A DNA stretch of 61,894 nucleotides, filler included. It is 12 parts of 12 records of this genome, joined end to end, with 100 filler letters (N's around TTAATTAATTAA, not from the genome) between each part and the next. Parts side by side here need not be neighbours in the genome. Positions count along the whole stretch, not along the records: positions 1 to 4,171 come from SRR15195285_8618; 11 more parts are not named here. One strand, written 5' to 3'. The position numbers were made by a program, and so were the translations under genes. Below the pieces are notes generated by a model. That model ran no database searches, had not been told where the DNA came from, and worked only from the letters and a program-made list of their open reading frames with translations. Below, in pieces: positions 1 through 57,715 of the stretch. How positions within the stretch are numbered: the stretch's first letter is position 1; each line of letters begins with the position of its first letter.

Positions 1-489
1 ATGACTTCTACTCGAATTCTCACTGATCCCCTTTAGATGGGCTCAAGATCGATTCGAAATGCCAATTCAGAATTTGTGAAGTCAAATGTGATGAAGTCAC
101 ATGCATTGATCTTGACCAGGAAGCCCTCCTGACATGCCTCGGATGCCTCCGACTGCATGGCCTCCTGAGATGCTGTCCAAGACAATCTGGGCACTGCATT
201 ACAATTCATGGATCTCAGGGCACAGGGGTCTGAGGTCCATGAATTGCCTGAGGAGTTGTGTATCATAGCCGCAAGGCTCATTTTTGGGCATAGGTCGCAG
301 CTATGGTGCACGTCCCAAGGTAGTGTATCGGGGAAAGACAACGGGAGGAGGGGGCCCCAATAGCAAACGCACACCATGGTGCCAAGCTAGTGTTAATCAC
401 ACGGCATAAGGCCCTTGTGCCTCGTGGTATGGCCACTGCGTACGTCTTTGGTCCACCCACATTAGACTAATCTCACGACACCCTCACTA

Positions 490-3400
490 TCACTCGCGGA
501 GCGTCGGCAAAGATGTTGCCTTCGCTAGTTCCGCCGAGGCTGCTCGGCCGCGATTCACCTGGGCTGCCAATCTGTCGGCCGTGCGCTCTCTGGGTTGCGT
601 TTGACTTTTGCCTCGTCGCCGTTGGGGTGACGCTCGCTTGGTTGTGCGATCGAACGAATGCTCTACGCTTCGTATCGGCCGCAATGGCCCTTCCGGTGTC
701 TTCGTAGTACTTTTGCCGCCAGCATCATCCGTTTCACCGACAACGAGCTCGTCCAAACCAGCGTCTGCAGTTGAGTAAAGCACATAAAGACATCAATCAC
801 CCACAAGTCAGTCACTAGGCCTGCCAGCAGCAACAGAACGCCGCAGCAGCAACAAACGCCCACGCCTGCAGCAACCGAGGACGAGAGAATCAAAGTCAAG
901 TGAACCCACAGGCAGTCCACGTCTCGTAGGCTGGCGCTTCCATGATGGAGGACGCGTTGCTTGCGCCCAGCTGCAATCCAGACCCTGCAAAACACAAGTG
1001 CCCCAAACATGAACTTCAGAAATTATACCACCCGAAACACAGCAGTAGGAAGTCGGGAACGCAGCTTCCACTACTACTCGAATGCTATAAACAGCTAGAG
1101 CTTCCTCGCGCGTATTGGGCGCACCCATCTCAGAAATGGCACTACGCGAAGGTCGGATTAGCACGGAAGGTACATCCTTTTCGACAGAATCATCGTCATA
1201 CCTGTTGTGCTCAACCACAATCACAGCACATAAAAATGCATGGACATCGGGTAGAATGATCAATTAGTTCTGCAAGATCAGTGTGAGAAACGTCTAAAGA
1301 AAGGTGTGATGTGTGCTCTGCGCACTTGATAGTATACTGGTTGTGAGAGTCAACCGACGCAACAACTCCACTGCGCAACATAGCATTATGAAGAGACAAT
1401 TGCAAAAAATGGTGCAGACCAATCGTACAGTTCCGTTCTTAGCCTCTGTTCGTTGTGCGTGCGTGCCCTTGCGTGCCCCTTGCGCGCTTAGCTGGACAGT
1501 CAACCTACCTGTACCAGTTGCCGAAGGAGTTCCAGTCCGCTTCAATTCGTTCACCCACCGCGAATGTTCGTTCTGCGAGCTGCGTACGTGTCGACAACAA
1601 CGATGCCACAATGCATTTGTACAGTACATTTGTCAATCATGTCAACCCACAATAGCACAAACACATTCTGATCTCCCCGAAGATGCGAACGCAGAAGAAT
1701 GCTGCATACCTTCTCAGGAAAATGATCCTTGAGGAATCTTTCGTCTGTGAGCAGACGTAGCGTTCGTGGTGTCGGAAGTGAGGTGGCCACCGCCGACTCA
1801 TTTACGTCATCGTCGTCTGACCTGGACGTACAGGGCACCCATCGAGAAAGGGGTTGAGGGTAGGCTGTGGTGTTGCTCACGGTTTATGAAAAGCATTTGA
1901 AGCACAGGACCGCGATCTAGCGCACAGACTGCCGAGCACCAAAGCACTGAACACACTCACCCTTCCCCCATCTTGCTTTCTGGGATTGGGATAGATAAGC
2001 TACTACCAAGGCCGATGTCATCTCCACTGGAAGGCGACTCGCTGTGGAACGAGTCTCGTTGTGCAAGCGGAGAGTAACCGCCGTCGCGAACATTACTGTT
2101 AGAAGGGGATTCATTGCTGGTTGTCACTGCGCATTCCATACAGATAATTTCTCATCAGTGTTCGGGCGTAGCTACAGGCAACAAAGACTATCCTCGCCAT
2201 ACCAACGAATGGGTGCCACACTCACGCAGTTTGTCCTTCAGGGAGTTGCGCACCAAGCCCCGACCCTTCGCAGCGGCGCGGCGGCGCATGGACGCGCCAG
2301 GCGAGGTGCCCTGCTCCGACTGAGTGCGGAATTTTGGCGCGGCGAGCACGTTGTTTGTCTGCATGAATTTTGCACGTTGGCAGCGTTCGAGCTCGAATGA
2401 AGCAGTGGTAGTCTTTCGCTTGGACGGCGCAGGCATCGCCGAGATCAATGTCATTCTTGTGGAGCCATAGCGCTGTCGCCGTGCAGCACCAAGATCATCA
2501 TTCATTCCTTGCGAGCGCGCGATACTCTCGGAGCGTGAGCGAGCCCGACTTTTCGCCGTCATGTTGTCGTCATCTTGAAGCAGCGGTTGTAACATTCCCA
2601 CCGGTGCCGGCGGCAGATCGTTGCTGTCTGGTTCAAGCAACGGCAGGAGCAGCACGTTTGGCTGCATCATAATACCAACACCCATGAAAAGGAGGTTCCT
2701 TGCCCAACACGGCCAGTACCCACTGCCACTCACGGGCATGCCTGCCGATGATCCTGGATACTCGTTGGGCTCGTGTGAGCAATCGACCCAGCCGGGGAAA
2801 AGCAGCGTGTCGTAGGTCTCCCAGAGACCAATGTTGTGAACTGCTCCTGCGAGTATTGCGAGAATCGAGCGCAAAATTAGTTCAGCTTGCTTTTGCTTCT
2901 CGTCGAGCTCCGTTGGCGGGGTGCTCGTCTTTGCTGAGGCTTCCTCGTCATCTTCCGGTGTGCTGATGAAAGACTCTGTGGCGTTGAGTAGCATATGGCC
3001 TATTGCCATGAGGAAGAAATTCTTCCACCAGTTGGCGGACTGATCTGCGCACCCTGAACCATCCAGGCATATTACCCAGTAAAGCGAACAAACGCCATAC
3101 CAAAGTAGCACTTGAGCCGAAATGGCAAACAATGTGCGAATGGACTCCCGCATGTGCTCTGTCCATGATGAGCTCCACGTGACCTCGTCGCGCGCAGACT
3201 CTACACCAGACGACTCGAAGAGCGTCCCCGTGGCCAGCATCATCGCGAAACCCAACACAATGAAACAGGCGTAAGCGTACGTGGAGTTTAGAATCGCCTT
3301 CGGGACATAATCGTCCACGATGTTGAAAATTCCGACCCAGAACAACGTCGAGCAGAGCAACGTGAGCAGCGTCGTGATCACGTATAGTAGCTTGCCCAGC

Positions 3401-3999
3401 AGGGAGGTGGATCGGATCGCCGGGGGGCGCCAGCGCCCACACAGTAGGCCCTGTTCGTCATACCAAATTGAGCCAGGCAACCCACCCTCCTCATACCACC
3501 GGTCTAAACCAACCAATCCGCCAATGCCTACAACTGTCATCAGGATATCCCGCAAGTGGTTTTCTAGGATGCCAGCAGCCACCACCATGTCGACATCCAC
3601 CGCTTCCCATGCCCCAAGCCAGAAAAGCTGGCCACCGTAGAGCGAGAAACTAGCAACCACGTACGGCTGCATGGTCTGCCACCGTGATGGTTTCTGCTGT
3701 GTGGGATCCTTCTCCTGACGAAAGTTGTTTGGCTTCTTCCCTTCTTTCTGTGTTTGCGGCAGTAGATTGTGTTGGTGTGGCTCCACACGATTGCGAGCGC
3801 CTGAGGAGAAACTCGAGCGTTTCTCAGCTCGAGACTCTGCACCCGGGAATGGCTCGATCCTGGGGAGAGGCTCGCTACCAGGGAACGGTTCCCGCGTAGC
3901 ACCGCCGGGAAACGGCTCGGATGACCCATTCCGCGGCTGCGCTGGCGCTCGCAGCGACTCTTTGCGGTGCGGCAGCTCCCTCGAAGTCTGGAGCGACAT
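490..3999 (-). CDS. Fuseless-like multi-pass membrane protein with C-terminal Tudor domain (8 exons, ~864 aa)
   Basis: Exons 3999-2226, 2126-1961, 1821-1710, 1579-1509, 1370-1326, 1201-1125, 984-910, 764-490. All introns are GT-AG and phase-consistent; the exons total 2595 nt. Four W/N-x-G-hydrophobic helix-pair repeats (LFWLGAWEAVD, LFWVGIFNIVD, LLWYGVCSLYW, HNIGLWETYD) resemble Fuseless. The spliced FAVGERIEADWNSFGNWYSGVVASVDSHNQYTIKYDDDSVEKDVPSVLIR fits a Tudor fold. The last two exons are the least certain. Confidence 0.7.
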
Positions 4000-4171
4000 G
4001 CACTACGGTACCTGTCCAGTGCAGCCGCCCGAGGCGCCGGTCACCTCGCTCGCGAACGATCTATCGAGGGAGCAGATAGCATACGCAGTGCATGTCGCGA
4101 CCGCCGGCGCGCGGCGGCATCGCAGGCAGTGTCGCGCGCGACCGCCGTCGGCGGCGCGGCGGCGGCGCGCG

Positions 4172-4271
4172 NNNNNNNNNNNNNNNNNNNNNNNNNNNNN
4201 NNNNNNNNNNNNNNNTTAATTAATTAANNNNNNNNNNNNNNNNNNNNNNNNNNNNNNNNNNNNNNNNNNNN
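4172..4271. other. Artificial contig linker
   Basis: 44 N + TTAATTAATTAA (stops in all six frames) + 44 N. Confidence 0.97.
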
Positions 4272-4497: not shown

Positions 4498-5514
4498 ATG
4501 CAGGACGGCGTGCAGCAGCCGGCGGCAGCGCCAGCGTCGAGCGAGAAGGGGCTGGCGGCGGTGGTGTCGCAGAAGATCCAAGCGGTCAAGGAACAGCCGC
4601 GGGTGCAGCAGGCCTTGCACAGCGCCGCCTGCACTCGTTTCAATTCCTGGTGGTCGGTGGAGAAGCATCGGGTCGCGCTGGCGAGATGTCTGATCTCGAC
4701 GTACTTCTTTAACGTCTGGGTCAGTGCACTGCAAATGTGGTGGATCGGTCGGGCGGGCTTTCCAATTCTCACGCTCGGGCTTGTGGTGCCCGCGGTGTTA
4801 CTCGTGGCGAATCAGTGGATGCACGTCACAGGCTGGGTGCTTCTGGCGGAAGTCGCGAAAGACTGCACATCGTTGCTCTGGGGAGTGTTTCTGACGTGGC
4901 TGTACCGTGGAACGTTCTACCTGAACGAACTCATGGTCAAGAAGCTGTCGATGCTCGGCGTGACCCTGCTGGTCATTTATCAACACTACAGCAGCGTCGG
5001 ACAGAAGAACCCGCTGGCCGGTCTGATTGGCCCAGATTCGAACAAAACTCCAACCAACAAAGAGTCGGTAGCGTTGCTCGTCAGCCGGCTCCTGCTCACG
5101 TCGCTATTCATCTGGGCAGGGCAGGCGGAGATAAGAAGACAACTAGCCAGTGTGCACGACGACGGCCAAGGTCACCAGGTCCATGACCGTCCAGCCGGTG
5201 ACGGGCACGATCAGCTGTGGGCGAAGGCGGCCCAATTTCTTTGTTCCTTGCCGCTCTGTCTAGGCTTCAAGACAAGGATCTTCTGCTCAACGCTCGCGAC
5301 CGTCTGCTTGCTCGAGGCACTCATTCAGTGGTCAGGTTTGCACTGGTATGGGTCGGGTTGGCTGTATGATTGGGCTGGGTTCGGGGCGTTCTACAAGATG
5401 CATGCCAGAGAACATTTCGTGGTGAACGTGGGAGTTGCAGGCGGATTGATGCTGCTTTGGATACATGGCGCTGGCAAGTATTCAATGGACGAATACCTCA
5501 AAAAGACCGATTGA
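4498..5514 (+). CDS. SURF4: SURF4/Erv29-like (DoxX clan) ER cargo receptor membrane protein
   Basis: 338-aa multi-TM ORF. The C-terminus HFVVNVGVAGGLMLLWIHGAGKYSMDEYLKKTD matches the SURF4 GG-L-LL...G-x-G..S-x-DE pattern and ends in a KKxx ER-retrieval signal. Confidence 0.75.
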   Translation: MQDGVQQPAAAPASSEKGLAAVVSQKIQAVKEQPRVQQALHSAACTRFNSWWSVEKHRVALARCLISTYFFNVWVSALQMWWIGRAGFPILTLGLVVPAVLLVANQWMHVTGWVLLAEVAKDCTSLLWGVFLTWLYRGTFYLNELMVKKLSMLGVTLLVIYQHYSSVGQKNPLAGLIGPDSNKTPTNKESVALLVSRLLLTSLFIWAGQAEIRRQLASVHDDGQGHQVHDRPAGDGHDQLWAKAAQFLCSLPLCLGFKTRIFCSTLATVCLLEALIQWSGLHWYGSGWLYDWAGFGAFYKMHAREHFVVNVGVAGGLMLLWIHGAGKYSMDEYLKKTD

Positions 5515-8588: not shown

Positions 8589-8688
8589 NNNNNNNNNNNN
8601 NNNNNNNNNNNNNNNNNNNNNNNNNNNNNNNNTTAATTAATTAANNNNNNNNNNNNNNNNNNNNNNNNNNNNNNNNNNNNNNNNNNNN
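8589..8688. other. Artificial contig linker
   Basis: 44 N + TTAATTAATTAA + 44 N. Confidence 0.97.
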
Positions 8689-12870: not shown

Positions 12871-12970
12871 NNNNNNNNNNNNNNNNNNNNNNNNNNNNNN
12901 NNNNNNNNNNNNNNTTAATTAATTAANNNNNNNNNNNNNNNNNNNNNNNNNNNNNNNNNNNNNNNNNNNN
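12871..12970. other. Artificial contig linker
   Basis: 44 N + TTAATTAATTAA + 44 N. Confidence 0.97.
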
Positions 12971-13409: not shown

Positions 13410-16400
13410 TCAAAATTCAACGTGATCCACGCCTGTGAATTGGGCAGCAGATCGGGCAGCTGCTGGCCGTGGGGTGCCCGGCCCGAGCGATCCTTCACTG
13501 GGCGGCAAGTGTTGCTTCTCTATGAGTAGCCCAGCCTTCTCCAACTCATGCTTTTTCGCTACCCATCGCGCACGCTCTGCCAAATTTTCCGCGGTCTTCT
13601 TTGCCTTTGCGGCTTTGAGTAGCTCGCCGCCGGACGTCAAAAAGCCGTATTCAAGCAGCGCCAGAGTTAGTTTGTCATCGTGCCCTCTCGCTGCTCTATC
13701 CTGCCCCAGTCGCTGCGCAGCGGCCGCCTTCTCCTTGCGCGATAGCTTCTGGCCTTCCTCCACCAGGTTCAGAGCGAATAAGTCTTCAGGGATGACACCG
13801 TCCTCCAACGCGTCGCTAACAAGCATTGACACATCCTTCACCGCAGCCATCGTCTCTTCATCTCTCACCTTCGCTGTAGCTCTACGGGCGGCTAGGCGCT
13901 TGGCTGTCTTGTCTCGCCACTCGATTTCCGTCAGATTTTCCTCTTCTCCACTCTCCTTCTGTTGCAAACATCAACACATGAGAGCATTCGGGAGGGGAAT
14001 GGGAGAGTAAGGGGGTATACGGATGTAAACATGTTGTCCCAAGCAAAACAGAGGATGCCTGTAACCCGTACCTGCATTTGGGCCTCAAGCTTCGCGGCGC
14101 GTCGTGCCGTTTCGGATGAATGCGCTCGCTTGGCAAGCTCCTCAATCTTTTTGTCATGTTCTATCAGTGCCTTCACGTGATTAGCCTTTCGACGTCGGGC
14201 ATCGTCTCGTTTTTTTGCACGAGCCTTGCCGTAACGAAACGCATCAGTCTGCCGTTGCACTTCTGCCTGTAAGGCAGCGTCTTGTTCGGTTTTCTCCACG
14301 CGTTTTTGCCTCTCACGTTGTCGCGCACGGTCAGCCAACTTTTCGCATTTGTTTATCCGACGAAGTTCAATCTCTTTAAGCTCTAGTACAGCCTGCAGGT
14401 CTGCAACATCATTGTGAATCGAATTGTCGTACGGAGATGCGCTGCTGCGATCTCGTACGGTACTGCATGCAGGAGCACTTGCAGGACGACCAGCCTGCAC
14501 GCGCCTGCGTCTCCCAACTTCTGCAGCATGCTTTCGCTCTGCTAGGGCTTGAGCCTCACGTTCAAGCTGACGCCTGAGCCACCCACCAAACGCGGTACCC
14601 TTTAGTGGCTTCGTCGCGCACTGCACTTTCATATCTGCAACAATTTGTGCTCCCAGCGAGGCGATCGTTGCACCATAGCGGACAAGAGTTACGCAAACAT
14701 CCACCCAGTTGCGTCCAGCGGCTGCACTGTGGTCTATCAGGCCTACTGATATCGCCATCGCCAGTGGTGTCTCACCTTTGCAGTCGGCTAGGGTTACCGC
14801 GTGCTGTGCTACTGACGATTCAAGCGGTGCGAGTAGCCTTAGCAGCAGGTCGTTTCTTTCAATCTTGTCATTTTTTGCGTTTACTGAGGCCACTGGAGAA
14901 AGAATGCACAGATGGACTCCGTTTCTTCCTTCAGAATCCACTAAATTTGCAATCCACCGGCCGCCGTCCATCTGCGCTGCATGCAAGTTGGCTCGGGCAT
15001 TAACCACTATGTCCTTAGAGACAGCTCGCGCTGGTAGCATCCCGCTCATATCTATGCGAGATGTCCTCACACCTAGTTGTTGTAAGCGCAACGCATATTC
15101 TGACTCTGCCTGGCATCGAGCATGGCGCTCTTCCGCTGCGGAATTCATGGCTATCTTTTTCTTGCTTATGCTGTTTCCGAGCAGGCCACCTAGCTTATGG
15201 CCTACGTCAACCTGTGCTTGTGTCACGCCGCCTGCACCGTACGTGTCCTCGTTGCCCCCAAGTGCCTCGAACATTGACTTATCTCTCTCTATCTGCGCTT
15301 GTTTTTCAGCGTTAATCCGGGCTTGTTTCTCAGTTCGCCATTTGCTTTCTTCTTCTTCGCGACGCTGCTGCTCTACAAACGCAACCTCGACCTCATGCAA
15401 TGAGACCAACTCCTCACGCTTAGCGCTCTCTGCTTGGTTGGCAGCCTCAACTTCTGCCTTAGCGTCCGTGCACTCCTGAACTACATCACGGACGTTCAAT
15501 CCAGTAGCAAATTGATTGAAGAGGGCAACATCAATGCGTGCACCAACGCCATCACCGCCCAGCTCATCTCCAGACTTGTCGCCGAAAAGCCACGCATCAA
15601 ACTCGTGTAATTCCATTCTTCCATCGCCATCCTTATCCATCCAACGCCAGGCAGCGTTGAGCTGCCGGACGTTGATTCCAATACCGAGTTCCTGACACAA
15701 GATTTTGAGTTCCGTCTTATCTATCGTACCAGAGCCATCAATATCGACCCTACGGAACGCTTCAGCTGCAGATCGCGCTAGTTCCTCTCTGGCTTCTCGC
15801 AACTTCTTCCTTGCTGCTACGCCTATCTCTTCACAGCTTGTGACGTCAGCTTGCATCCGTGCTAGCCGTGACTCCGATTCCAATACATACGCAGGTGGTG
15901 GCTCTGGTGCCAGCTCTTCAATCTCTTCTTCAGCTTGTACAGGGAATGCTGTTCGAAGTTCTGCGTCGAATTTGCGCGCCACACTGCTCATTGGGTTCCA
16001 ATGGCTTTCCTCGGCCGTCAAGGGAATGATACCGCCAGGTGCCAACAGTGCCACGAGCTCGATTTTCCAGCTGAACAACGCCGCGAGCAATGGAGGCCGT
16101 CCCATCTCCCCTTTGTACCTGACTTGTTCGTCGAGAGCAGCATCAGGCTTTGGGGCTAGGGTGGGGTCCGCCCCGAATTGCAGAAGGACTTTGGCGGCGG
16201 AGTATGCGGTGCTGCGGAGGTGACCTTCCCAGCGCACTATGAGGCCCAGCGCTGTACAACCAAGCTGGCCACCAGCAGCATCCACTTCAACACCATAGTC
16301 ACACAGCAACTGGACCAGCGCGGCAAGCGTATCAGACGAGTGGCCTGAAGTAACAGCCGTCATCAGTGGAGTTGCTCCTTGTGCGTCACGAAATGATCCC

Positions 16401-17746
16401 TGAGCACTCCGTGGTGCAGCTGCTAGTAGAGCAGCCGCAGTCTGCACGTAACCGTTCAAGCACGCCAAGTGTAGTGCTGTCTGCGCCGTGTGACGGTCAC
16501 ATGGCCACCCACTACCAAGCGTGCCAGCATCACGTCGCGCGCCCGCGCGCAGCTGCCGCGCTGAGACCTCTGGCCAGCTGACTGCATCGATTAGCGATCC
16601 ATACTTTTCGCACAGCCATCGCGTCAGTGCCACGTGGCCATGTGCAGCCGCGAGATGCAGAGCTGTGCGCCCACCTAGATCGCACACTTCACGTACTTTA
16701 GCTTGGTTGCTTGATTCCTCAGTTAGCCACTTCACAACGTCCATGAAACCGTGTCGCGCCGCCAGGAGCAGCGCATTTCGCCCGTGTGTATCTGTTCTGC
16801 GGTAATCTGCCCATTCATCCGCGTCTGTGTCCAGAATTTGCTGCTTTACGCCCTCAAGGTCGCCAGACGCAGCTGCAGCCAGCAGTGGGTCAGTTCCACC
16901 GTTATCTCCAGCAGCTATGAGCTCAGCACCAGAACGCAATTGCAAAAGCCAGTACGCAACGCCTCGATGCATCCGAGAAGAAAGCGGCGAAGAGAGCACA
17001 GTACCGAACGAAAACACGCGGCTTGAACCCGCCAGCTTTGCCAGCGCCGGGTCTGGTACATCGTACGCAGGTGCCCCTAACGGCGCGACAGCGACTAACC
17101 TATTTCCCGGGAGCCGTTTCCAAGGCGCCCCGTCCATCCCTTGTGCCGCAGTCTCTGGCGCAGCGTGGAGCTGCAGGGCGGGACAGAACCATGGCTGCAG
17201 GTCTGGGTGCAAGTGATTTCCCTGTAAGCATACCTCGCGCAGCTTGCGGTGCTGATCGTAGGCATCTGGGTTGGTGATAGCAACATTGCGCCACTCACTG
17301 CCGCTGCGGCGCCGGGCCTGGTGTCCTGTACCAGGGCCCCACCTGCTCAAATGCCGGTGACCTGCAGCGCTCGCGCCAGGACCTGATGGCGCGGAGCTCG
17401 GCCGCTGCCGACTCTTTCGGGCACCCGGGGCAGACTGAGGACGTCCATACGCAGCAGATTCTGCAGTAGCTGCCCCCGTCGTCGCCGACTGAGGACGTGC
17501 TCGAGGAGCGGATCCTGCAGCAGCTGCCCCTGTCGCCGACTGGCGTCTTGCACGCGTAGCGGAGCCCGCAGCTGCCCGTGACGCCGACTGTGGCCGCTTG
17601 GCACTGCCCGTCACGATCTGTCGGAACCAGTCCAGCTCAGTCCGCCGGGCCGCAGCCGAGCTGGGCCGCCTTGTTGCCCTGCTCTCTGAGCGCCCTTGGC
17701 TCGGCGTGGCAGACGCTGGGCGACGGCTGCGCTGGTGGCTCTCCAT
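13410..17746 (-). CDS. Large ankyrin-repeat, EF-hand and coiled-coil protein
   Basis: Start in GCCACCATGG context at 17746; intron 13959-14071 (GTACGG...ACAG). Ankyrin motifs GRNALLLAARHG, GRTALHLAAAHG, TALHLACLNG, GATPLMTA, GETPLAMA. EF-hand pair DIDGSGTIDKTE and DKDGDGRMELHE. Confidence 0.85.
17400..17660 (-). repeat. Coding minisatellite encoding repeated RP(Q/S)SA units
   Basis: Degenerate ~42-nt units (+ strand GCAGCTGCCCC..GTCGCCGACTG) encoding RPQSA/RRQSA/RPSSA. Confidence 0.55.
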
Positions 17747-17968
17747 GGTGGCCCCGATGCAGACGAGAGCGACGGAGCCAACAACGGCCGGCAAGTTCAT
17801 TCGAAATTCAGAATGAATCCCGGATCCCGGGTAGTGGGAATGGCACAGGCCGGAATTCTCAGCTCGAGATCTGGAGCAATGTAGTCGCCTGTTGCTGTTC
17901 CTGTTCCTGTACAGTATCCGTCGATCGATTCCTGTTTGGGACCTAAAAAGCGCATAACACTAAATTCC

Positions 17969-18068
17969 NNNNNNNNNNNNNNNNNNNNNNNNNNNNNNNN
18001 NNNNNNNNNNNNTTAATTAATTAANNNNNNNNNNNNNNNNNNNNNNNNNNNNNNNNNNNNNNNNNNNN
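17969..18068. other. Artificial contig linker
   Basis: 44 N + TTAATTAATTAA + 44 N. Confidence 0.97.
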
Positions 18069-21000
18069 AGCCTGAGCCTGAGCCTGAACCTGAGCCTGAC
18101 CCTGCGCTGGGATCACCTGAGTCTCATAGCGCAGTGCGGCGCGACCCGGTTACAGGGGCTGCGTCTTACCTGGGAAAACTATGGGTGCATTGCAACGATC
18201 CATTTGATAGCACGAAACTGGTGCCAGTCAAGATTCAGGTCGGGAGGCCTAAACTTTGCTTTGACGAACAGGCACTGTCTGCCCGGCTGGAAGGTCCAGG
18301 TCTGAACGAGCCAGGAGCATTTGTTGAGAAGGTATTGCACCTCACCAACGAAGGTACATGGGACGCAAAGATCGCGGCCTTAGATGTCGATTCCAACTCC
18401 GCAGGCTGGGCGACAGTCTTTATTCGAGATGATACAACAAATGAGTTGCTGCGAGGGAGCGACCTACCGCATGGATTTGTGTTGACGCCGGGTAGGCCGG
18501 CGCTGGAGGTGATTGTGCGCTTCACAAAACCCATTACACCGCAAGACCAAGACCGTCGTGCTATGAACGCTAGTAGAGTAGGCGGGGAGGCACAAGACTC
18601 ATCGCTGACGAGCCGACCTGCTGACGAGCTGGAACATTTTGTCGTGGATTGCCCAACACCTGGTTGCGAGGAGACGTTGACTCTTACTGCTAAGACAGAT
18701 CGTTTATTGAGATGTAGGCACTGCCAACAAGAGGTGTCTTCGCTCGTCGACAAGATACTGCAGCATGCGACAGACAACATCAGCAGTTTGGAGCTTGATC
18801 TACCCGGTGTTGGCGCTCTGACCTCCTGTCGCTGTCCAGCGCCGTGCGGTGCCTTTGTAACATTCCCGATTGCCAACACGATCTATTGCCCTGTGTGCGT
18901 TGAGCAGGTTTTCGAGCCTGGTGAGACTCCAGACGGCGACCCCGTTGTCAACGCATACACGGCACCAAATGTGGACGCTGGCCTCACGGATGTGCATCAG
19001 CAGGTACTGCCAGTAACTGCTGGATCGCTTCCTGCTAGTCAGTCAGACGCTTTCACTAGCAATGACCACGGTCTTTTTGACAACAACTTCCCCGATGATG
19101 TACCCAGCGAGTTCAGTGGCTTTGTTGAGGTGTTCGAAGACTCCTCAAGGAGGAAGCCGGCCTTGCGTCTTCCTATCGCAATGGAGCTCCAGGCGCCTCT
19201 GCTTGTGATCGACCCCTCGTCTATCACTGCAGAGATCGCCAGAGGCGAACACTCCTGTAAGACGTTGAGTCTGCGTAATGACGGTGATGCAACCCTGACG
19301 CTACGCAATCTGGAGGCGGTGGACGCACAGGGCCGGCAGCTGGCCTGGGCGACTCCGGAATTGACGTCTGCTGTCGCCAATGAGCACACTTTGCTCGAAC
19401 CTGGTAATGCGATGCCAGTTGCTGTACGATTTCACTCAGACGACGGCGGTGAACACGTCGGATTTCTGCGGCTAGGCGATTTCGCCAACCGACAGACTGT
19501 GAATGTGCCGATGGCACTGAAGGTAGTACCCCCGAAGCTGCTGTGGGAGTGGAAAATTGACGACAGAGTAGATGACGCTGGAGTATCAGTACTGTGGAGT
19601 TCACAGCCTGTTGTCGTGCAGATTATCAAGGATTCAAATCAATCTGTATATGTGCGCGTTCGTGCTGGTGGCCGGGCAGATTTGCTCCTGCACAGCGTGG
19701 GCTCCACGGCGAAATGGGCCTCGTTGCATCTTCTCGACGACAATCTCAAGGACATCTCACCGCGGGACGACGTCATACATGCTACAAACTCTTACATGAC
19801 ACACCTTGTCACTGTGGGTCAGACGCTGAAACCTGGTCCGGTCGCGGACTCTAGTGCCACCCTTCGGATCGACATGAACAGTGAGGGCATGGGCGTTGGC
19901 GAGCACATAGCACAGCTTGTGATCAACTCGAATGACCCTACACATCCGACTACACTAATTTCGTTGCGAATGAATGTTCTTGGACCTCGGATCCACATCG
20001 ACAAATCTGAACTCGAGTTGAAGTCTGACGCCGCTGTGGGTTTGGCATCGGCGAACTCATTTTACATAAAGAATACAGGACACGCACCGCTTATCATCAA
20101 GAAAGTTGAGCGTTCGGAAAGCTGCAAGCTGTGGACTACACTGCATATCGGTGGATCCCACAATGGAGACAGTCGGAGCGGACCGTGGACACTGCAACCG
20201 GCGTCAGAACCGCTGGAAGTAGTAGTGCAAGCGCACAATCAAGACCCCCACGCATCGGTGGCGCTACACCAGGGCGCCGAAGCTGCAAGGACTGGATGGC
20301 TGACAATAGTTTCTGACGACAGCAGCTCCCCGACTCGGTTTGTCAAGGTGAATGCGAATATCGACTCACCAAAACTCAGAATCGAGCAAGAGCTTATCAT
20401 TTTAGAGCGACCGGCAAGTGCGACCCCACGGGAAATTCGACTGTTCAATGACGGCACAGTGCCGTTGGAAGTCCTGGCGGTCACACCAAGTGACGACTGT
20501 GCAGGTTGGTGCATGGTGAAACCGACCGGTGAGTGTTCACGTGTCGTGCTGCGTGTCTAGAGTACCAGACTGTTGGACAGACTAGCACTCCTATTGATGT
20601 GTTGACTATGTTCTAATGCTACTGTCTGCTAGCACTCACAGTCTTGCTTGTCGATTGCCTTCTGTACATGGACCAATGCAGTACAACTGCCGTACACCGT
20701 TGAAACTGATGACGGGGAACCCGATGGTGGAGAAGGGGAGCGTAGCTGCGTGAATTCGCTAGGCGAGATTTCCATCGACGTCGTGATCGTCACAAAGGAG
20801 CCTTCGCGCAAGAAAATTATCGCAAGAGTTTCTCTAGACATCACGAACGCGCCCGCTGAAGCAGCCGGCAGTCTCACGGTGCGATCAAACGACAGCTCCA
20901 TGGCGTCGTTGAAAATTCCGATCGCAATCAAGGAGGCACGCTTACGGCCCTCGCGCGACAAAATCATTGCAAGAGTTGGCGCCGGCACACAGGCCATGTT

Positions 21001-21371: not shown

Positions 21372-21471
21372 NNNNNNNNNNNNNNNNNNNNNNNNNNNNN
21401 NNNNNNNNNNNNNNNTTAATTAATTAANNNNNNNNNNNNNNNNNNNNNNNNNNNNNNNNNNNNNNNNNNNN
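21372..21471. other. Artificial contig linker
   Basis: 44 N + TTAATTAATTAA + 44 N. Confidence 0.97.
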
Positions 21472-25807: not shown

Positions 25808-25907
25808 NNNNNNNNNNNNNNNNNNNNNNNNNNNNNNNNNNNNNNNNNNNNTTAATTAATTAANNNNNNNNNNNNNNNNNNNNNNNNNNNNNNNNNNNNN
25901 NNNNNNN
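25808..25907. other. Artificial contig linker
   Basis: 44 N + TTAATTAATTAA + 44 N. Confidence 0.97.
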
Positions 25908-27974: not shown

Positions 27975-30900
27975 ATGCTACCGTCGCTCGTGCTACTGGC
28001 AGTCGCCAGTTCAACCACAGCAGCTCCTCAGGCGGCGCAAGGCGTGACTGGCAGTGGCGCCGAATGGCCACACGCCTGCCAGGTGATCTTGGCTGCCTGC
28101 AACGCGTCAGATGCGGCGCAGACGTGGACATTCTCCAAATATTCGTCTGCGCACGAAAACAGTCTTGCCCTGTCAAAGACAGACGCCAGCGGGCACCCCT
28201 ACTGCCTGAACGTGGCACGCAGTGGCACGAAGAAAGGCTCCGATGTGTGGGTCACTCCGTGCGTCCCTGAGCACCCGGACACAGCCAATCGTGACTGGGA
28301 GTTTAGCACTGCGAGTTTAGCAGACAGCAGTACTATGACGGGTAAGCTACAAAATGTTCGAAGCAAGTTCTGCGCGTTTGAGACCCCGCCGCAGCACTCG
28401 CCGGAAGCGCCCGGTCACACCGTGCTAGCAGACTGTGCCACGTCTCCTTCGTGGAGCATGGACACGAGCACGGGGCTGATCCACAGCGAACACGACTCCA
28501 CCAAGTGTCTCGCAGCTGACTATGCAGGGTCAGTTCCGGGACCGGCACCACCTGCACCCCCACCGCACTTTGGCGACGTCCGGGACCGTATGGGCTGTCA
28601 GATGCCAAACCACACCCACTACCCGTTCTGTGACACGTCGAAAAGCATCGACGTGCGTGCTGCTGATCTGGTAGCGCGAATACAAGACGCAGATAAGCCC
28701 GGCCTGCTGACAGCACGGGCGAACAAAGCTCTGCCATATCTTGGGGTGCCTGGGTACTACTACGGCACAAATTGCCTGCACTCAGCCATTACCGAGTGTG
28801 CGGGTAGCCAGTGTCCAACGAGCTTCCCCGCAGCACCGAACTGGGCAGCCACATTCGATGTGGCGACAATGACCAATATGGCTGCCACTGTTGGCAGGGA
28901 GCTACGCGCAGCTTTTGCTATTGGCAGTCCCGACAATACATACAAACCTGCAAACGTCGGCCTGCAATGCTGGGGGCCTGTTGTCGCGCTGAACCGGGAT
29001 GCACGGTGAGTACTTGTGTAGCATAGGATGTGTTTCCATGCTCTCGTCAGCCCCTAAGGACTGCCTGCATCAATATCTTGGGATTGCCCGCAACTAGGTG
29101 GGGACGCAATGGTGAAGGTGGAGTCGGTGAGGACTAGTACAGCACGCGCATGTGTTTCCATGCTCTTGTCGGCCTCTAACAATTGTCTGCATCAGAGGAT
29201 CCGCGTCTGGCTGGGGCCTACGGAGCGGCATGGAGCCAGGGCTTGCAGCAAGGACCACCTACGGCTGATGGCCGAGGTCACCAGCTGCAGGCAGTTGTCA
29301 CTCTCAAGCACTTTGATGCGCAAACTGTAGAAGATTCTAACGGATGGGGTCGGCACAATGTGTCAGCCAACGTCTCACGCTACATGCTTATGGATTCGTA
29401 CCTGCCAGCATTCGAGATCGCCATTCGTGCTGGTGCAAAAGGCGTGATGGTGAGCAACTGGTTGTTGTCTTTTGGCAGTGTGCAGTCTCTGTGCGCTCAC
29501 TACGTGTGCTCCGCTGGTGATGCAGTGCTCATACAATGCTGTGAATATGACGCCCACATGCCTGTCACCCTTGCTGCGGCAAGCTCGTGTTCAGTGGGGA
29601 TTCGAGAAGAATGGTGGGTATGTTACTTCTGATACAGATGCTGTCGGAGACGCCTACAAGACGCATCATTTTGTTGACTCAGCGGCAGCCGCTTCATGCC
29701 AGGCAATCACGAAGGGCGGTGACCAGGTGAACTCTGGAAGTACCTTCAGCCACGGGCTGCTCGATGGCGTGAAACAGGGATTGTGCACCATGTCAGATGT
29801 TGACGCGGCACTCATGGTGGTCATGAAAATGCGGTTGGAGCTGGGACTGTTCGACCCGGTGGATGGACAGCCTATGCTCAAGTATGGGACGGGGGATATT
29901 GGCAATACTGAGGCCCAGGCACTTAACCTGCTGGCTACACAGCGCTCGTTGGTGTTGCTGAAGGACGGCACGAGGATGGCCACTGGTGGCGCAGGCACAA
30001 GCCACGGCACACCCGCCGGCATTTTGCCCTTTGCTGCCGGTGTCCCCACGGCTGTTCTGGGCCCTCATTACAATGCAAGCTGGGTCATGATACAGCCCGA
30101 TTCCGGTGATGTGTGCCCTTCGGGCGGCTTGGACTGCATCCCCTCCCCAGTCGACGAGATTCGGCGCGCCAACAAAGGAGCGCAGACAACTGGTTCCCTC
30201 GGGTCCTACTTGTTTGCCAACGACAATGCCACTGCGCCGACGCTGCTTGAGGAAGCGGTTGCCCAAGCTCGCGTCGCGAAGCAAGTAGTGCTTGTCCTCG
30301 GAATTCGCTCGTCGACGTATGGGCCGTTCAGCTGCTCAAGGAAGGATCCGCGCCCAGGCCATGGCAAGCCTATTTGTAAGGAGAGCAGTGGGCGGGCTGG
30401 AGCTCTGAAAAACTTCACGGATCTGCTCGGCCCGTATGGCGATATTCAGCACATGACTCAGACAGGATCTATGGAAGATGGTGACGCATACGTGGAGGCA
30501 GAGACTCATGACCGCCGCAGGATTGACTTGCCGATGCCACAGCAGCAGCTCGCCAACGATGTGGTCGCGCTCGGAAAGCCAACTACGATTGTCCTATTGA
30601 ACGGTGGTGCCGTCGCTCTGCCCTCTAATATCCTGAGTGCGAGCAATGTTGCAATTATCGAGGCGGGATACCCGGGAACGCGTGGAAGCGAGGCTATTGC
30701 GTCGGCTATTTTTGCAGCGACCACCCCGCAGGTAGCTGCGTCTAGCGGAACTCTATATGTGGATCGCTTCGGTCGGCTTCCGTATTCAATCTTCCCGCAG
30801 TCGTGGACGCTCGACAACCGTATGGATGAAATGGATCTGGCTGCACCACCAGGCCGAACGTACAAGTACTCACACGATCCGTCACTAATCCAGTTCGAAT

Positions 30901-31468
30901 TCGGTGCAGGGCTTCAGCTATCCAGACTTTCGCTCTCGCTAGTCCACCAGCCTAGAACGAGGGCGATGACGGACGATGACAATTACACGTACAGCCTCAA
31001 CCTCACAAATGTTGGCCGTTACCACACTGAAGCCGTGGTTTCGATGTTCATGTCGCCCAAGACGCTGCCGACGCAACCGAAAGATCACCCACTGCTTGGG
31101 AAACGCCAGCTCATGAGCTTCCAACGGCTAGGCACTGCTGCTGGAGGCCTAGCCCCGGGTGAATCTACCACAGTGACGTTTGTGGTGGGTGGGTACGATC
31201 TGTCTATCGTGGACTTTGGTAAGTTCTATTGCAGCTTGCGCGTGTCTCTACACTCTTGTCGGTCGCTCTTGTCAGCTTTAAGCCTTGTCTACGTCAATTA
31301 CTTTGCGACTGCTCGCAACCAGGTGGACAAGGGGATCGAATCATTGCGCCTGGAGACTACGGGCTCAGCTGGGAGACGGGCAGTGTCGAGGCAGCAGTCG
31401 GTGGCGTTGGCTTGAGCCTGAGCGGGGAAGAGGTGGTTGTCGAGCCGTACCCAGAACCCACACAATGA
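27975..31468 (+). CDS. Secreted GH3 beta-xylosidase-like glycosidase with N-terminal ricin-B (CBM13-like) domain and C-terminal Fn3-like domain
   Basis: Exons 27975-29005, 29098-29126, 29196-29449, 29526-31218, 31323-31468. Signal peptide; QTW/DWEF ricin repeats; TSFP, RWGRNGE...EDP, LKHF, VMCSYN, nucleophile GYVTSD, ETHDR, GYPG..G. Confidence 0.9.
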
Positions 31469-33639: not shown

Positions 33640-33739
33640 NNNNNNNNNNNNNNNNNNNNNNNNNNNNNNNNNNNNNNNNNNNNTTAATTAATTAANNNNN
33701 NNNNNNNNNNNNNNNNNNNNNNNNNNNNNNNNNNNNNNN
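33640..33739. other. Artificial contig linker
   Basis: 44 N + TTAATTAATTAA + 44 N. Confidence 0.97.
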
Positions 33740-34216: not shown

Positions 34217-37200
34217 TCACTCCCGTCCAGCAGGCGGTCGCGCCGGGAGCTGTGGCGATGCCGATCGTGAGGCTGGCCGACTCGCTCCGTCCTCCTCAGC
34301 CACAGGGTTTAGCACGCCTGCTGCGCCGCCTCGCAGCGACCTTGAGCCGCTTCGGGAATGGCTCACCGTAGATCCGAGAGCATCATCAGTGCCCCTGACG
34401 AGATCATCTAATCGACGGACGACAACAGAAAAGCTTGGCCGGCTCTCGGCATCCTGTACCCAACAATCTTGGATTAGCTCGGCGATCTGCGCGTCTACCG
34501 GGCGATCCGTGGTGCCTGTCACCTGCATTCGAGGGCGTTCGCCCTGCGTGACCTTGTGAGGTACCTCCGCACCACCCGCAATACCACTCCATGGCAGCTT
34601 TCCACTCACCAGCTCTGCCAAGCACATGGCGAAGCTGTAAACATCTACCTTCTCGTTGTATGTATTGCCCAGCAAGATCTCTGGTGCCATCCAAAGCACA
34701 GACCCACAGCCGGTCATCATCACGGTCTGTGCATGGTTCTGGCTTTCTAAGTCTAAGCCTTTGTCGCGGGACAGCCCGAAATCGGTCACCTTGACCACCA
34801 CCCGCCCTGTTTCTGTCGGAGGAGCAACCAGCAGAAGGTTTGGGGACTTCAGGTCGCGGTGAATAATCGGCTGCGCGTGCCGGTTGTCAGGAGTGTTGTA
34901 GCGCGTGTGCAGGTACTCCATGCCCTTTGCTACATCAGTCGCCGCCTTCAGTATCTGTGCATGGGTCGGGCGCCACCCTTCGACGTACAGCTGGTGGTCG
35001 AGCGAGTTGCCTTGGCACAGTTCTTGAACGATCATCAGTCTTGGTGTGTCCGCGTAGCCCAGCAAACGGACCAAGTTTGGATGATTCAAATCCGCGCACA
35101 CCTCGACCTCTGTCACAAAGTCCTGGGTAATCCCGTCGACCAACTCCTTCAGCCTGGCGTTTGCTGCTGCGGTAGCATGCGACGTGCGCTCCGGCAACTT
35201 CAAGACCTTGACCGCCACCTCCCGCCCACGCCATGTCGCCTTGTACACCATGCCGTATGAGCCTGTGCCAAGCGGGTCCTTCATCCACTCCGCCGGCTGG
35301 AGCTCACGGACGTGCTCACCAGTGAACATGACATGGATCACATTGTCGGAGCCCTTCGCACGCCGACGGCGTGTTGCGCTGGCGTCGCTCGAGGATGAAC
35401 TTAGCTGCACGGAGGAGCTCGTCGACGAGCTAGAGCCAGCCACATCTGACCAGTCGTCCACAAGACGGTCGGCAGAGGCCGCTTTGTTCCACCGCGCAGG
35501 GATGTCGAGAGCCGTCATCTTCGCGGCTGGGAGCTTCTCGACCCCGAGAAAACTTTCGCGCAAGACCCCAGCAGGCTCCACGGCATTACTTGCTCGTCTT
35601 TTTGCCAGACACGCGCACACCAATGCTACGATAGCAGCCACCATCACAACAACCTCAGCGACCGTAGTGGGTTCGTTTTCACGGCTGAACCAGTCCTCCA
35701 CAGTCTGACCGATGGAGCTGGGTGGCGACCTTGGCTGGCACTGGCCGCCAACCCACACGCCATCCGGACCGCAGGCGATGCATCTGATACCGGCGGAGTG
35801 CAGGCCTGCTGCGCACGTGACGCACTGAACAGGGTCGGTCGCGTTTGGCTCCTGCCCCTCCGAACAATCCCTCGCGCAGACGAGCGCCTGTCCAGCCTCG
35901 AACGGCCCCCACAGCCCTGAAACTGGATCGCAGGTGTAGTCGCCCATGCCGCCCACCGGCCGGTAGCCTGGTGTGCACGTGGCCACGCATAGTGCCACTG
36001 CGTGCGTCGCTGCTTCCTTACAGCTGGCGGTGAACTCTGCATGCTCCGATGGGTGCCGGTCGTGCGAACACAGCTTCGCGCAGCTCAATGGTGTGTTCGT
36101 GGTTGGGATCCACTTCCCATGGTCCCGACGGGTGTCGTTGTTGACGCATTTGTACTCCAGGTCGGTATTAGGCATCGGCACAGTGCCGTCGGTGCACTTG
36201 GCCACGCAAGTGCGGTTCAGCTCTCGGACGCACTTTTGGGCGTCCGGGTCAATCTTGATGTGGTCAGACGCCACGCCTGGGTCGCCGAGGCAGAAGTCCG
36301 GGATCGCCGTGCATGTGAAAGCACGTGTCGCGTCGTCCGCCTTCCATGCGCCGTCACTTGCGCATGTGAAGTTCGCTGAGCCACCGTCGGCTCGAAAGCC
36401 CAACTCGCATCTCGCGACGCACGTGCCACCTTGCTGGGCCGACTCGCAGGGTTCAGCATGCGGGGTGAGGACCTTTTCCGCGCACCCGTGCAGCTGACAG
36501 GCCAGTGCGTGGGTGTCCGGCTTCCACCCATCAACCTCGCTGCACGTGTACCTCATCGAAGGATCTGCAGAGATAGATGCGTAACCCGGATCGCACTGGG
36601 CGTCGCACTGCGAGCCGACCGTGTGGCTACAGCCGCTGCGGAAGCCCGCATGCGGCTCCGGGTCGGTCGGGCACACGCGCTCACACTGGAGCGCGCTCGA
36701 GCCAACCACCGTCCACGACTTATCTGCTTCACACTTGTATTGATTGCTGCCGGTGCCGTCCCACCTGAACTCGTCTGCGCAGGTGGCGCTGCACGTGTCG
36801 CCAATGCGACGCAAGCAGTCCTCATCCTGTGGCACCACCACTCCGGTCTCACTGTCCGGATCCCCGCCGCACCAGCCTTCGATTGGCTGGCAGTCCAGGG
36901 CGTGGGTCTTGCCGTCGGTAGCCTGTGGCCGCCACACATTATCGCTGCCGCACACGAAGCCTCGGGTGATTGTGCCCAAAATCGTGCTTGTTTTCCAGGT
37001 TTCTTGAGCATCGTAGCCTGCTGCACAGGTGATCGGGCAGTGTTTATTCTTCCCTTTGTAGTGGCACTTCCCATCCTTTGTAATCCAGGTCGTAAGCCCG
37101 TTCTCGGCTCTGTTCAGGATGCAGTGTGGGCATGGTGGCCCAGTATCCGGGCAGTTCGCCCGCGTGAGGGACACGGCCTGCGCCAGCGCCAACAGCAGCG

Positions 37201-37219
37201 CCAGCGGCCTCGCCGCCAT
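34217..37219 (-). CDS. Single-pass receptor kinase: six sushi/CCP-like modules, Cys-rich juxtamembrane segment, TKL-group kinase
   Basis: Intronless ~1000 aa. Signal peptide MAARPLALLLALAQA; TM VVVMVAAIVALVCACLA; kinase motifs LGTGSYGMVY, VAVK, HRDLKSPNLL, DFGLSR, GSVLWMAPE, DVYSF. Confidence 0.92.
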   Translation of the reverse strand: MAARPLALLLALAQAVSLTRANCPDTGPPCPHCILNRAENGLTTWITKDGKCHYKGKNKHCPITCAAGYDAQETWKTSTILGTITRGFVCGSDNVWRPQATDGKTHALDCQPIEGWCGGDPDSETGVVVPQDEDCLRRIGDTCSATCADEFRWDGTGSNQYKCEADKSWTVVGSSALQCERVCPTDPEPHAGFRSGCSHTVGSQCDAQCDPGYASISADPSMRYTCSEVDGWKPDTHALACQLHGCAEKVLTPHAEPCESAQQGGTCVARCELGFRADGGSANFTCASDGAWKADDATRAFTCTAIPDFCLGDPGVASDHIKIDPDAQKCVRELNRTCVAKCTDGTVPMPNTDLEYKCVNNDTRRDHGKWIPTTNTPLSCAKLCSHDRHPSEHAEFTASCKEAATHAVALCVATCTPGYRPVGGMGDYTCDPVSGLWGPFEAGQALVCARDCSEGQEPNATDPVQCVTCAAGLHSAGIRCIACGPDGVWVGGQCQPRSPPSSIGQTVEDWFSRENEPTTVAEVVVMVAAIVALVCACLAKRRASNAVEPAGVLRESFLGVEKLPAAKMTALDIPARWNKAASADRLVDDWSDVAGSSSSTSSSVQLSSSSSDASATRRRRAKGSDNVIHVMFTGEHVRELQPAEWMKDPLGTGSYGMVYKATWRGREVAVKVLKLPERTSHATAAANARLKELVDGITQDFVTEVEVCADLNHPNLVRLLGYADTPRLMIVQELCQGNSLDHQLYVEGWRPTHAQILKAATDVAKGMEYLHTRYNTPDNRHAQPIIHRDLKSPNLLLVAPPTETGRVVVKVTDFGLSRDKGLDLESQNHAQTVMMTGCGSVLWMAPEILLGNTYNEKVDVYSFAMCLAELVSGKLPWSGIAGGAEVPHKVTQGERPRMQVTGTTDRPVDAQIAELIQDCWVQDAESRPSFSVVVRRLDDLVRGTDDALGSTVSHSRSGSRSLRGGAAGVLNPVAEEDGASRPASRSASPQLPARPPAGRE

Positions 37220-37300
37220 CTCTCTGCCTCGGATCCCCTCGATCGATCCCCCACCCCCGCCGCCACCGGCGCGCATCTTGGAGTCAATCAATAAGCGCCG

Positions 37301-37400
37301 NNNNNNNNNNNNNNNNNNNNNNNNNNNNNNNNNNNNNNNNNNNNTTAATTAATTAANNNNNNNNNNNNNNNNNNNNNNNNNNNNNNNNNNNNNNNNNNNN
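37301..37400. other. Artificial contig linker
   Basis: 44 N + TTAATTAATTAA + 44 N. Confidence 0.97.
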
Positions 37401-42027: not shown

Positions 42028-42127
42028 NNNNNNNNNNNNNNNNNNNNNNNNNNNNNNNNNNNNNNNNNNNNTTAATTAATTAANNNNNNNNNNNNNNNNN
42101 NNNNNNNNNNNNNNNNNNNNNNNNNNN
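42028..42127. other. Artificial contig linker
   Basis: 44 N + TTAATTAATTAA + 44 N. Confidence 0.97.
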
Positions 42128-52200: not shown

Positions 52201-52614
52201 GGCGCCTGACGTGGGCGCCGGCGCAGCGCGCCGCTCGCGCTCCGAGTGCATGCGTTCGAGCGCCTGCCCGAACTGTGCCTGTCGCTCCGGATCCGGCGCC
52301 AGGTGGTCGAAGCAGCCCGCGCCTCGTGCGCTCGGTTGCTGCACCGCCGAGGCGCTTGCTCCTGTGCGTGCATCAGAGGAGTGCGACGCAGCCGCCGGCC
52401 GCCGGTCCTCGTCAAAGTCATCCGAGTCCGAGCCCGCCGCGACTGTGCGAGCTCGCGGGCGTTTACGCTGCGCCACCGTCTCCTCCGGCGGCTTCGCAGC
52501 CTTGCGCTTGCCGCCTCCGACACTTGCCGCCTCCGACACTGACGGCGTCGCCACCTGTGCAGCAGCAGGCCGCGATTTCGCGAAAAAAGACGACAGCACC
52601 TGCTGCCTCCCCAT
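49204..52614 (-). CDS. MSH3: DNA mismatch repair protein MSH3
   Basis: N-terminal PIP box QQVLSSFF; YTPLEKQV and VEVGYK (MSH3-type, lacks the F-X-E of MSH6/MutS); Walker A GPNMGGKS; DEVGRGTSTHDG; TLFVTHY; intron 49724-49807. Confidence 0.93.
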
Positions 52615-53073
52615 GCACGCCGCACCAACCAAACCCCGCCGCCCCTAGCCAAGCCTCCACTCCCGGAGGGGGAGCTCGGCAGCAGCTCGCCAGCAGCTTG
52701 GCAGTAGCAGCAGCTGTCACTGTGGCGGCACGCTGCGGCGCCCCGCCCCAGCAGCGCACTGTGGCGTAATGACCTCAGGAGCTCAGGAGCACTGGTGCCA
52801 CCACTGTGCGCGGCTCACGTCCTCACGACTCAGCAGGTCCAGAGGTCCTTGAAAATTCAATTCAATTTGACAATTTCTCCAATCCGGCCGGGAAGCCCCC
52901 CGGATGGAGACTCACCACTCAGACTCACGCACACTCGACACTGCCGGAGCTGACTCTCCCCTTGCTGCGTGTAAATACACGTACGGTCGTAGGATCCTAA
53001 TGAGTGCTAACCGGTACGGTAACGGGTAAGCGGCAACGGGTAATGGCAGCTGGGAGTATGCAGTGGAGATCAG

Positions 53074-53173
53074 NNNNNNNNNNNNNNNNNNNNNNNNNNN
53101 NNNNNNNNNNNNNNNNNTTAATTAATTAANNNNNNNNNNNNNNNNNNNNNNNNNNNNNNNNNNNNNNNNNNNN
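53074..53173. other. Artificial contig linker
   Basis: 44 N + TTAATTAATTAA + 44 N. Confidence 0.97.
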
Positions 53174-57615: not shown

Positions 57616-57715
57616 NNNNNNNNNNNNNNNNNNNNNNNNNNNNNNNNNNNNNNNNNNNNTTAATTAATTAANNNNNNNNNNNNNNNNNNNNNNNNNNNNN
57701 NNNNNNNNNNNNNNN
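57616..57715. other. Artificial contig linker
   Basis: 44 N + TTAATTAATTAA + 44 N. Confidence 0.97.

Follow-up and report, generated by a model that had tools for sequence, protein, structure and literature searches.

The DNA analyzed here, referred to below as the window, is a stretch of 61,894 bases in which twelve short contigs are chained by eleven N44-TTAATTAATTAA-N44 linkers. A gene on the minus strand, running from position 3999 to position 490, lies wholly within the first piece (1-4171) and encodes a multi-pass membrane domain followed by a Tudor domain. Because the window consists of chained contigs, gene adjacency across the linkers is uninformative for this membrane-Tudor gene. 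A fusion of these two parts had been proposed in a first-pass annotation of the window, and we recovered both in one predicted product, the Tudor domain by structure as well as by hidden Markov model (HMM).

The gene has eight exons and a coding sequence (CDS) of 2,595 nucleotides (nt), which amounts to 864 codons plus a TGA. Two codons 5' of the ATG at 3999, an in-frame TAG closes the frame upstream. When the locus is read without splicing, its most prominent feature is an open reading frame (ORF) of 603 amino acids (aa) (2188-3999, minus strand), which meets a GTGAGT at 2225-2220, 37 nt ahead of the ORF's stop. This donor, lying just before an apparent stop, had been singled out earlier, together with seven phase-consistent GT-AG introns that extend the gene to 490; the donor is present, and our reconstruction reproduced the introns to the base and gave the same 864-aa product. 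All seven introns are of the form GT...AG, are 99 to 145 nt long, and have consistent phases. The division of the Tudor domain among micro-exons of 71, 45, and 77 nt was also recovered, with the same three lengths. The features are collected in Table 1.

The evidence that carries the gene model comes from relatives, nine of which were found in a search with exon 1. Over its full length, exon 1 is 76% identical to P0001 and 74% identical to P0002. The spliced product shares 67% identity with P0004 across 740 columns that extend from residue 153 through the final residue, and none of the seven junctions shows a gap in this alignment. A tblastn search located P0004 on every exon of the window gene, and the exon 8 tail and P0004 finish on the same residues. 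One continuous ORF encodes membrane part, linker, and Tudor domain together in P0004, P0005/P0158, P0008, P0018, P0020, and P0035, the last three of which came from the profile search; these ORFs include P0004 with 720 aa (on a contig of 2,536 nt), P0005 with 826 aa, and P0008 with 370 aa. In P0020 the continuous ORF of 663 aa is on a 19-kb contig, and thus at least one organism seems to encode the fusion without introns. The ORFs of P0001 and P0002 (74 to 76% identical, on contigs of 6.5 to 7 kb) stop a few residues past the linker motif SLKDKL. Right past this motif, where intron 1 begins, these two ORFs and that of the window part from one another into differing, unconserved tails.

A second line of evidence is L001, a 1,348-nt genomic contig of a P0001-like relative that reaches from the last part of exon 1 to exon 6. 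It was the one locus obtained from 473 pattern matches when metagenome contigs were scanned with the family alignment. All 6 donors and all 5 acceptors in the part that L001 covers are at the same aligned positions as in the window. Identity between the two is 70 to 83% in the exons, with gaps in multiples of three, versus 42 to 60% in the introns, which are rich in gaps. Given the collinear ORFs of the relatives, the splice sites conserved in L001, and the greater conservation of exons than of introns, we consider the eight-exon spliced gene very probably real.

TABLE 1 Features of the membrane-Tudor gene and positions of the linkers in the window
Feature	Position	Strand	Length (nt)	Remarks
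Exon 1	2226..3999	-	1774	Ends in phase 1; ATG 3999-3997, N-terminal tail, membrane domain, start of linker
EPFPG-type short repeats	3838..3921	-		aa 27-54, N-terminal; read from the translation
Membrane domain	2635..3678	-		aa ~108-455; from hydropathy, AlphaFold helices on P0004, hhalign, and the family alignment
Intron 1	2127..2225	-	99	GTGAGT...CAG; holds the stop (2190-2188) of the 603-aa ORF
Exon 2	1961..2126	-	166	Ser-rich linker
Exon 3	1710..1821	-	112	Linker; pre-Tudor motif SLPTPRTLRLL at 1749-1781
Exon 4	1509..1579	-	71	Tudor strands 1-2
Exon 5	1326..1370	-	45	Tudor strands 2-3; conserved in L001
Exon 6	1125..1201	-	77	Tudor strands 3-5, YDDD...E..V....IRP
Exon 7	910..984	-	75	Conserved MEAPAYE.W segment; matches P0004 residues 590-620
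Exon 8	490..764	-	275	Includes stop TGA 492-490; basic tail; matches P0004 residues 653-720
Linkers 1-6	4172-4271, 8589-8688, 12871-12970, 17969-18068, 21372-21471, 25808-25907			
Linkers 7-11	33640-33739, 37301-37400, 42028-42127, 53074-53173, 57616-57715			

The Tudor assignment draws on profiles, on searches against structures, and on a model. An HMM built from 20 array repeats of other proteins matched the spliced product of the window with 68 bits at residues 683-745, and 23 of 26 aligned Tudor segments matched Tudor_5 with E values of ≤0.01. When single sequences were searched against the PDB, the Tudor domain of the lamin B receptor (LBR) was first (2dig_A, E = 0.0098), and of the 26 rows returned, 22 were known Tudor proteins, three were subtilisin-type proteases, and one was unnamed. 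With the family profile, 53BP1 was first (E = 0.0012) and 17 of 18 rows were known Tudor proteins. An AlphaFold model of a 125-aa segment of P0004, computed with a 26-row alignment, has five strands, with predicted local distance difference test (pLDDT) values of 93 to 97 over residues 40-90. Foldseek matched this model to nine PDB entries with E values of ≤0.001, led by PHF20 Tudor 2, PHF1 Tudor, and LBR Tudor; the top matches, all of them Tudor domains, had root mean square deviations (rmsd) of 1.1 to 1.6 Å over 52 to 54 columns, and PHF1 was 35% identical at 1.3 Å. Two points weigh against the assignment. In whole P0004, seven Tudor-type Pfam families matched at residues 538-587, but all were below their cut-offs (Agenet, 24.9 bits versus 27; Tudor_5, 24.3 versus 31); in the isolated 125-aa segment, Agenet just passed with 27.5 bits whereas Tudor_5 failed with 27.3. 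Furthermore, the modelled fold is that of the ortholog P0004 rather than that of the spliced window sequence, whose Tudor core is the same as the modelled core at 45 of 52 positions. Of the two Pfam matches that the first-pass annotation had suggested as a check, that for the Tudor domain was obtained narrowly, through Agenet, in the isolated P0004 segment but not in whole P0004, and Fuseless stayed below its cut-off (see below). The prediction of a single canonical five-strand Tudor barrel in the window protein is solid.

We examined the putative ligand pocket by mapping its columns onto 53BP1 through the PDB single-sequence alignment. The H4K20me2 cage of 53BP1 consists of W1495, Y1502, F1519, D1521, and Y1523, as listed in a section of PMC5974088. 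In the family, the counterparts of the first four are W, Y, Y, and D. Of the 26 aligned domains, 25 have an aromatic residue in the first of these columns and all 26 have one in the second; the third is Tyr in all 26, and the fourth is Asp in 25. The counterpart of Y1523, however, is Val in the window and is aromatic in none of the 26 domains. In place of the complete 53BP1-type cage, with four aromatics and an acidic residue, the family therefore has three aromatics and an Asp. The cage as first quoted, W...WY...Y.I.YDD, stands in so far as three aromatics and the Asp are kept, but its fourth aromatic (53BP1 Y1523) is replaced by Val. Judged from the alignment, then, part of a cage is conserved in the pocket, made up of three aromatics with the Asp. 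By analogy with known readers, the window Tudor probably reads a methyl-Lys or methyl-Arg mark. The counterpart of the Asp in 53BP1 contacts dimethyl-lysine, and by analogy its conservation here may point to a ligand in a lower methylation state.

The membrane domain appears to consist of four tandem two-helix hairpins, each of which opens with a motif of the type W-x-G / G-x-W...D. When the sub-alignments of the four hairpins were compared with hhalign, five of the six pairs gave probabilities of 84 to 95% and the sixth gave 14%, values that are possibly inflated by shared hydrophobic composition. The count of eight helices is opposed by the hydropathy profile, in which six segments of the domain exceed 1.3; helices 2 and 6 (about 150-172 and 326-345) were counted from the repeat alignment and a low-confidence AlphaFold model. 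The full-length AlphaFold model of P0004 has a mean pLDDT of 53.6, which is too poor for a claim about the membrane fold. A wide VIA-align search with the P0004 model (best Z, 7.0) was set aside because it returned only generic helical hairpins at residues 150-255. With an even number of helices, both ends of the protein would be on one side of the membrane. The N-terminal tail is basic and conserved Cys pairs are in the loops that follow helices 5 and 7; the basic tail, with the Cys pairs in the opposite loops, suggests that the ends are cytoplasmic or nucleoplasmic.

It had been proposed that the membrane domain resembles Fuseless (PF15993; Drosophila fusl). Fly Fuseless has eight passes. 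Both it and the window domain are multi-helix membrane proteins with a repeated hairpin motif of the W-G-W...D type, and PF15993 was the Pfam family matched by the most members. Searches of a language-model Atlas agree: with the window's domain, a Fuseless cluster was first (0.90; 206 of 256 features in common), and the Fuseless family set accounts for 16 of the 30 matches; with P0153, which is 28% identical to the window protein, Fuseless clusters were again first (0.89 and 0.87). Several results count against the relationship. Window exon 1 did not match PF15993 at an E value of ≤1. Matches at that threshold were found in 5 of 22 relatives, but the best (E = 0.0025) had 17.7 bits versus a cut-off of 25, and no family member reaches the cut-off. 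The four matches with listed positions all lie on HMM positions 236-291 and are on different hairpins in different proteins; consequently, they may mirror nothing beyond the repeat motif. For P0153, the recognition value in the Atlas was low (1590). Word-indexed searches for a bridge to true Fuseless sequences returned only P0005 and P0153 with a family alignment and only P0153 itself with P0153 as the query. The Fuseless-like label is thus no more than a lead: the Atlas ranks Fuseless first, but in Pfam the domain falls below the PF15993 cut-off and exon 1 has no match. On balance, we lean toward distant homology of the membrane domain to Fuseless.

The regions outside the two domains are distinctive. 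The N-terminal tail of the window protein has three EPFPG motifs and one EPLP variant; the motif is also repeated in P0001, P0006, and P0014 and may be a short linear binding motif. The linker, of about 200 residues, is basic, Ser-rich, and mostly disordered, and carries the motifs RTQSE, SLKDKL, and SLPTPRTLRLL. The last of these lies about 20 residues ahead of the Tudor domain, and its core is invariant in the 9-row family alignment. The motifs flanking the Tudor domain are specific to the membrane-Tudor family. The protein ends in ...SLPTLRE (490-560, minus strand), which resembles SLPTPRTLRLL and has RGR just upstream; the C terminus of P0004 is identical. This C-terminal sequence may be an internal pseudo-ligand.

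A profile of the membrane domain matched 42 of 172 stored proteins, 16 of which also have a Tudor domain. These 16 proteins fall into six clusters at 90% identity and are named either not at all or "hypothetical protein." The architecture, which the first-pass annotation had known from nowhere else, therefore recurs, and by sequence the membrane-Tudor proteins are a conserved, unannotated family. The membrane domain occurs without a Tudor domain in P0153 (398 aa; its source marks the ORF as complete), P0139, and P0057, which indicates that the Tudor domain is an addition within the family. P0057 (866 aa, on a contig of 3,012 nt) combines a major facilitator superfamily (MFS) transporter domain, an RNA recognition motif (RRM), and the four-hairpin membrane domain in one ORF, and is a further fusion within the family unless its contig is chimeric. 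The literature search, which covered papers without their supplementary files, returned no paper that pairs Fuseless with Tudor. Among the papers listed for Tudor with oomycete or stramenopile and transmembrane or multi-pass, nothing was relevant by title. PF15993 appeared as a table row only, and by the listing none of the papers on Fuseless and transmembrane concerned Tudor or the window protein.

The Tudor domain itself belongs to a subtype that also forms tandem arrays. Searching 1.84 billion representatives with a profile yielded 974 matches with E values of ≤0.001, and the best 150 of these were mostly tandem arrays of the same Tudor subtype, with the consensus F.VG.kVEA.Y.G.G.WYpG.v.....G.Y.I.YDDGd.E..Vp...iR. 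An example is P0010 (Pythium insidiosum GLD98134.1, "hypothetical protein"). The arrays differ from the window protein in having 3 to 33 tandem copies, and none in the stored set matches the membrane profile, whereas the window protein has one copy and its own flanking motifs. In the three array proteins that were scanned (P0098, P0099, and P0121), the scores for Tudor_5 and Agenet are far above the cut-offs. Counted with our own HMM, there are 33 copies in P0025, which has 7,637 aa, and 29 in P0010; P0011 is also an array.

To our knowledge, few membrane-anchored readers of methyl marks have been described, namely, LBR, TDRKH, and AKAP1. LBR ties heterochromatin to a membrane, and TDRKH does the same for the PIWI-interacting RNA (piRNA) machinery. 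Like the window protein, LBR carries a single Tudor domain on a multi-pass membrane protein, with eight helices in LBR and probably as many in the window protein, and its Tudor domain superimposes on that of the window family with an rmsd of 1.1 Å (2l8d) or 1.9 Å (2dig). However, the Tudor domain is N-terminal in LBR and C-terminal in the window protein; Pfam found no sterol reductase of the ERG4/ERG24 type in exon 1, P0004, P0005, or P0008; and no RS domain was identified in the window protein. Given this inverted order and the unrelated membrane domain, we rejected membership in the LBR family, in agreement with the earlier remark that LBR uses a different membrane domain in the opposite order. 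TDRKH/Papi and AKAP1 are membrane-anchored Tudor proteins in which a single-pass anchor is combined with KH domains and a Tudor domain of the extended kind. They share with the window protein a Tudor reader held at a membrane but differ in their KH domains, for which no match was found in P0004, P0005, or P0008. The extended-Tudor (TDRD/SND1) class was likewise rejected since extended-Tudor structures align only with an rmsd of 9 to 10 Å. The single Tudor domains of PHF1/PHF19/MTF2, PHF20, and 53BP1 have the same five-strand barrel (rmsd of 1.3 to 1.6 Å, up to 35% identity), but these are soluble nuclear proteins, and 53BP1 has Y1523 where the window protein has Val.

Taken together, these results suggest how the protein might work. 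The polypeptide would run from about 105 N-terminal residues with EPFPG motifs through four hairpins and a linker of about 200 residues to the Tudor domain and a tail of about 120 residues. The Tudor pocket would dock the membrane protein on a methyl-Lys or methyl-Arg mark of a partner, or recruit that partner, while the membrane body would perform a Fuseless-type role, possibly in transport or in organizing channels. We think it likely that one gene produces the 864-aa membrane-Tudor protein and that its Tudor domain docks a methylated partner at the membrane.

The gene model can be set against RNA data. Fifteen public runs hold parts of the stretch, and we aligned four RNA-labelled metatranscriptome runs to positions 1-4171. 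The results run counter to the model. Junction reads across 2225/2127 and the later introns had been named at the outset as the test of the gene, yet among 16 contig records from the four runs, none of the seven predicted introns was represented by a splice joint. Instead, contigs from the RNA libraries, with identities of 95 to 100%, are unspliced through introns 2, 3, and 4 and most of intron 7. In run X2, record 10 spans 1435-2138, which takes in all of introns 2 and 3 along with parts of 1 and 4; in X1, records 4 and 5 span intron 4 and most of intron 3 (record 5 lacks the outer 10 nt of intron 3); and in X3, record 12 covers most of intron 7. However, RNA-labelled libraries can contain DNA, and the unspliced contigs could be DNA carry-over or pre-mRNA. 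Thus, they lend the model no support and call for mild caution, but they do not refute it. Only two joints were listed in the RNA runs, 82/183 and 3714/3871, both away from the predicted introns. The second is in one X1 contig, which skips 156 nt (52 codons, in frame) at 3714-3871, in the N-terminal repeat region; the shorter side has 22 letters and the ends are not GT-AG on the gene strand, so this may be a length variant or a contig from a relative.

The unspliced contigs are one argument for two genes, a membrane gene ending at 2188 and a separate small Tudor gene downstream, with the fusion an artefact of chaining frames. They are the only RNA-library contigs over the region, and the ORF calls on the relatives' genomic contigs (P0001, P0002, and P0003) also end just past SLKDKL. 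But in six clusters of relatives a single ORF runs from the last membrane helix across the linker into the Tudor domain, including that of 663 aa on the 19-kb contig; conservation continues from exon 1 into exon 2 through a gap-free junction, with the splice sites kept in L001; and exon 2 has no conserved start-codon context of its own. We therefore regard two genes as very improbable.

If a single fusion gene is accepted, the role of the Tudor domain can still be read in other ways. The protein might be a chromatin tether of the nuclear envelope, lying in the inner membrane of the nucleus with its Tudor domain on methylated histone tails, and would then be an analogue of LBR that arose independently outside the animals. 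The nearest solved sequence is the LBR Tudor (2dig_A, as above), the best structural matches (PHF20, PHF1, LBR, 53BP1, and RDM15) include readers of histone methyl-lysine, and the linker and tail of the window protein have basic clusters. The LBR Tudor binds H4K20me2, according to part of a review (PMC5617974), and the fusion of Tudor with LBR is confined to Metazoa, as far as the portion of PMC5630835 consulted goes, so other lineages would need a different tether. On the other hand, the nuclear location is predicted only, the membrane domain is unrelated to the sterol reductase of LBR, the domain order is reversed, the cage is incomplete, and the closest lead for the membrane part, Fuseless of the fly, is presynaptic by the title of Long et al. 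2008. This makes a nuclear-envelope tether unlikely. Another possibility is that the Tudor domain reads no methyl mark and binds an unmodified protein, nucleic acid, or the protein's own tail, as a regulatory or oligomerizing module of a Fuseless-type transporter. The fourth cage aromatic is absent from all 26 aligned domains, the Tudor-flanking motifs are family specific, with the ...SLPTLRE end resembling SLPTPRTLRLL, and the membrane domain of P0153, P0139, and P0057 comes with no Tudor domain, which makes the Tudor domain an add-on. Nevertheless, the three aromatics and the Asp are each kept in 25 or 26 of 26 domains, which fits a constrained ligand pocket, and a Tudor domain that reads no mark is rather unlikely.

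If the Tudor domain does dock a methylated partner, the protist family would place a Tudor reader on a different membrane scaffold, one that has hardly been studied. From this pairing, it seems that protein methylation may position or regulate proteins of the Fuseless type. The family is also a candidate for a tether of chromatin or ribonucleoproteins in lineages without LBR; that it is an independent, non-animal counterpart of LBR, which in a lineage of marine protists devoid of LBR would anchor methylated chromatin at the nuclear envelope, is distinctly unlikely. Because standard annotation flags neither of the domains and the three micro-exons hide the Tudor domain from ORF-based gene calls, such proteins are invisible in current metagenome protein catalogues.

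By its Pfam matches, the ORF content of the other pieces of the window is ordinary eukaryotic. The long ORFs include 4498-5514 (plus strand), which matches SURF4 (27.9 bits versus a cut-off of 27); 13931-17800 (minus strand), with ankyrin and EF-hand; 29472-31415 (plus strand), with the GH3 C-terminal domain; 34217-37291 (minus strand), with Sushi and protein kinase; and 49804-52632 (minus strand), with MutS I, II, III, and V. The source of the gene is a marine eukaryote (a protist), probably with a flagellum. That it is a flagellate is suggested by the ORF at 18134-20560 (plus strand), which matches an immunoglobulin (Ig) domain of the HYDIN/CFA65 type.

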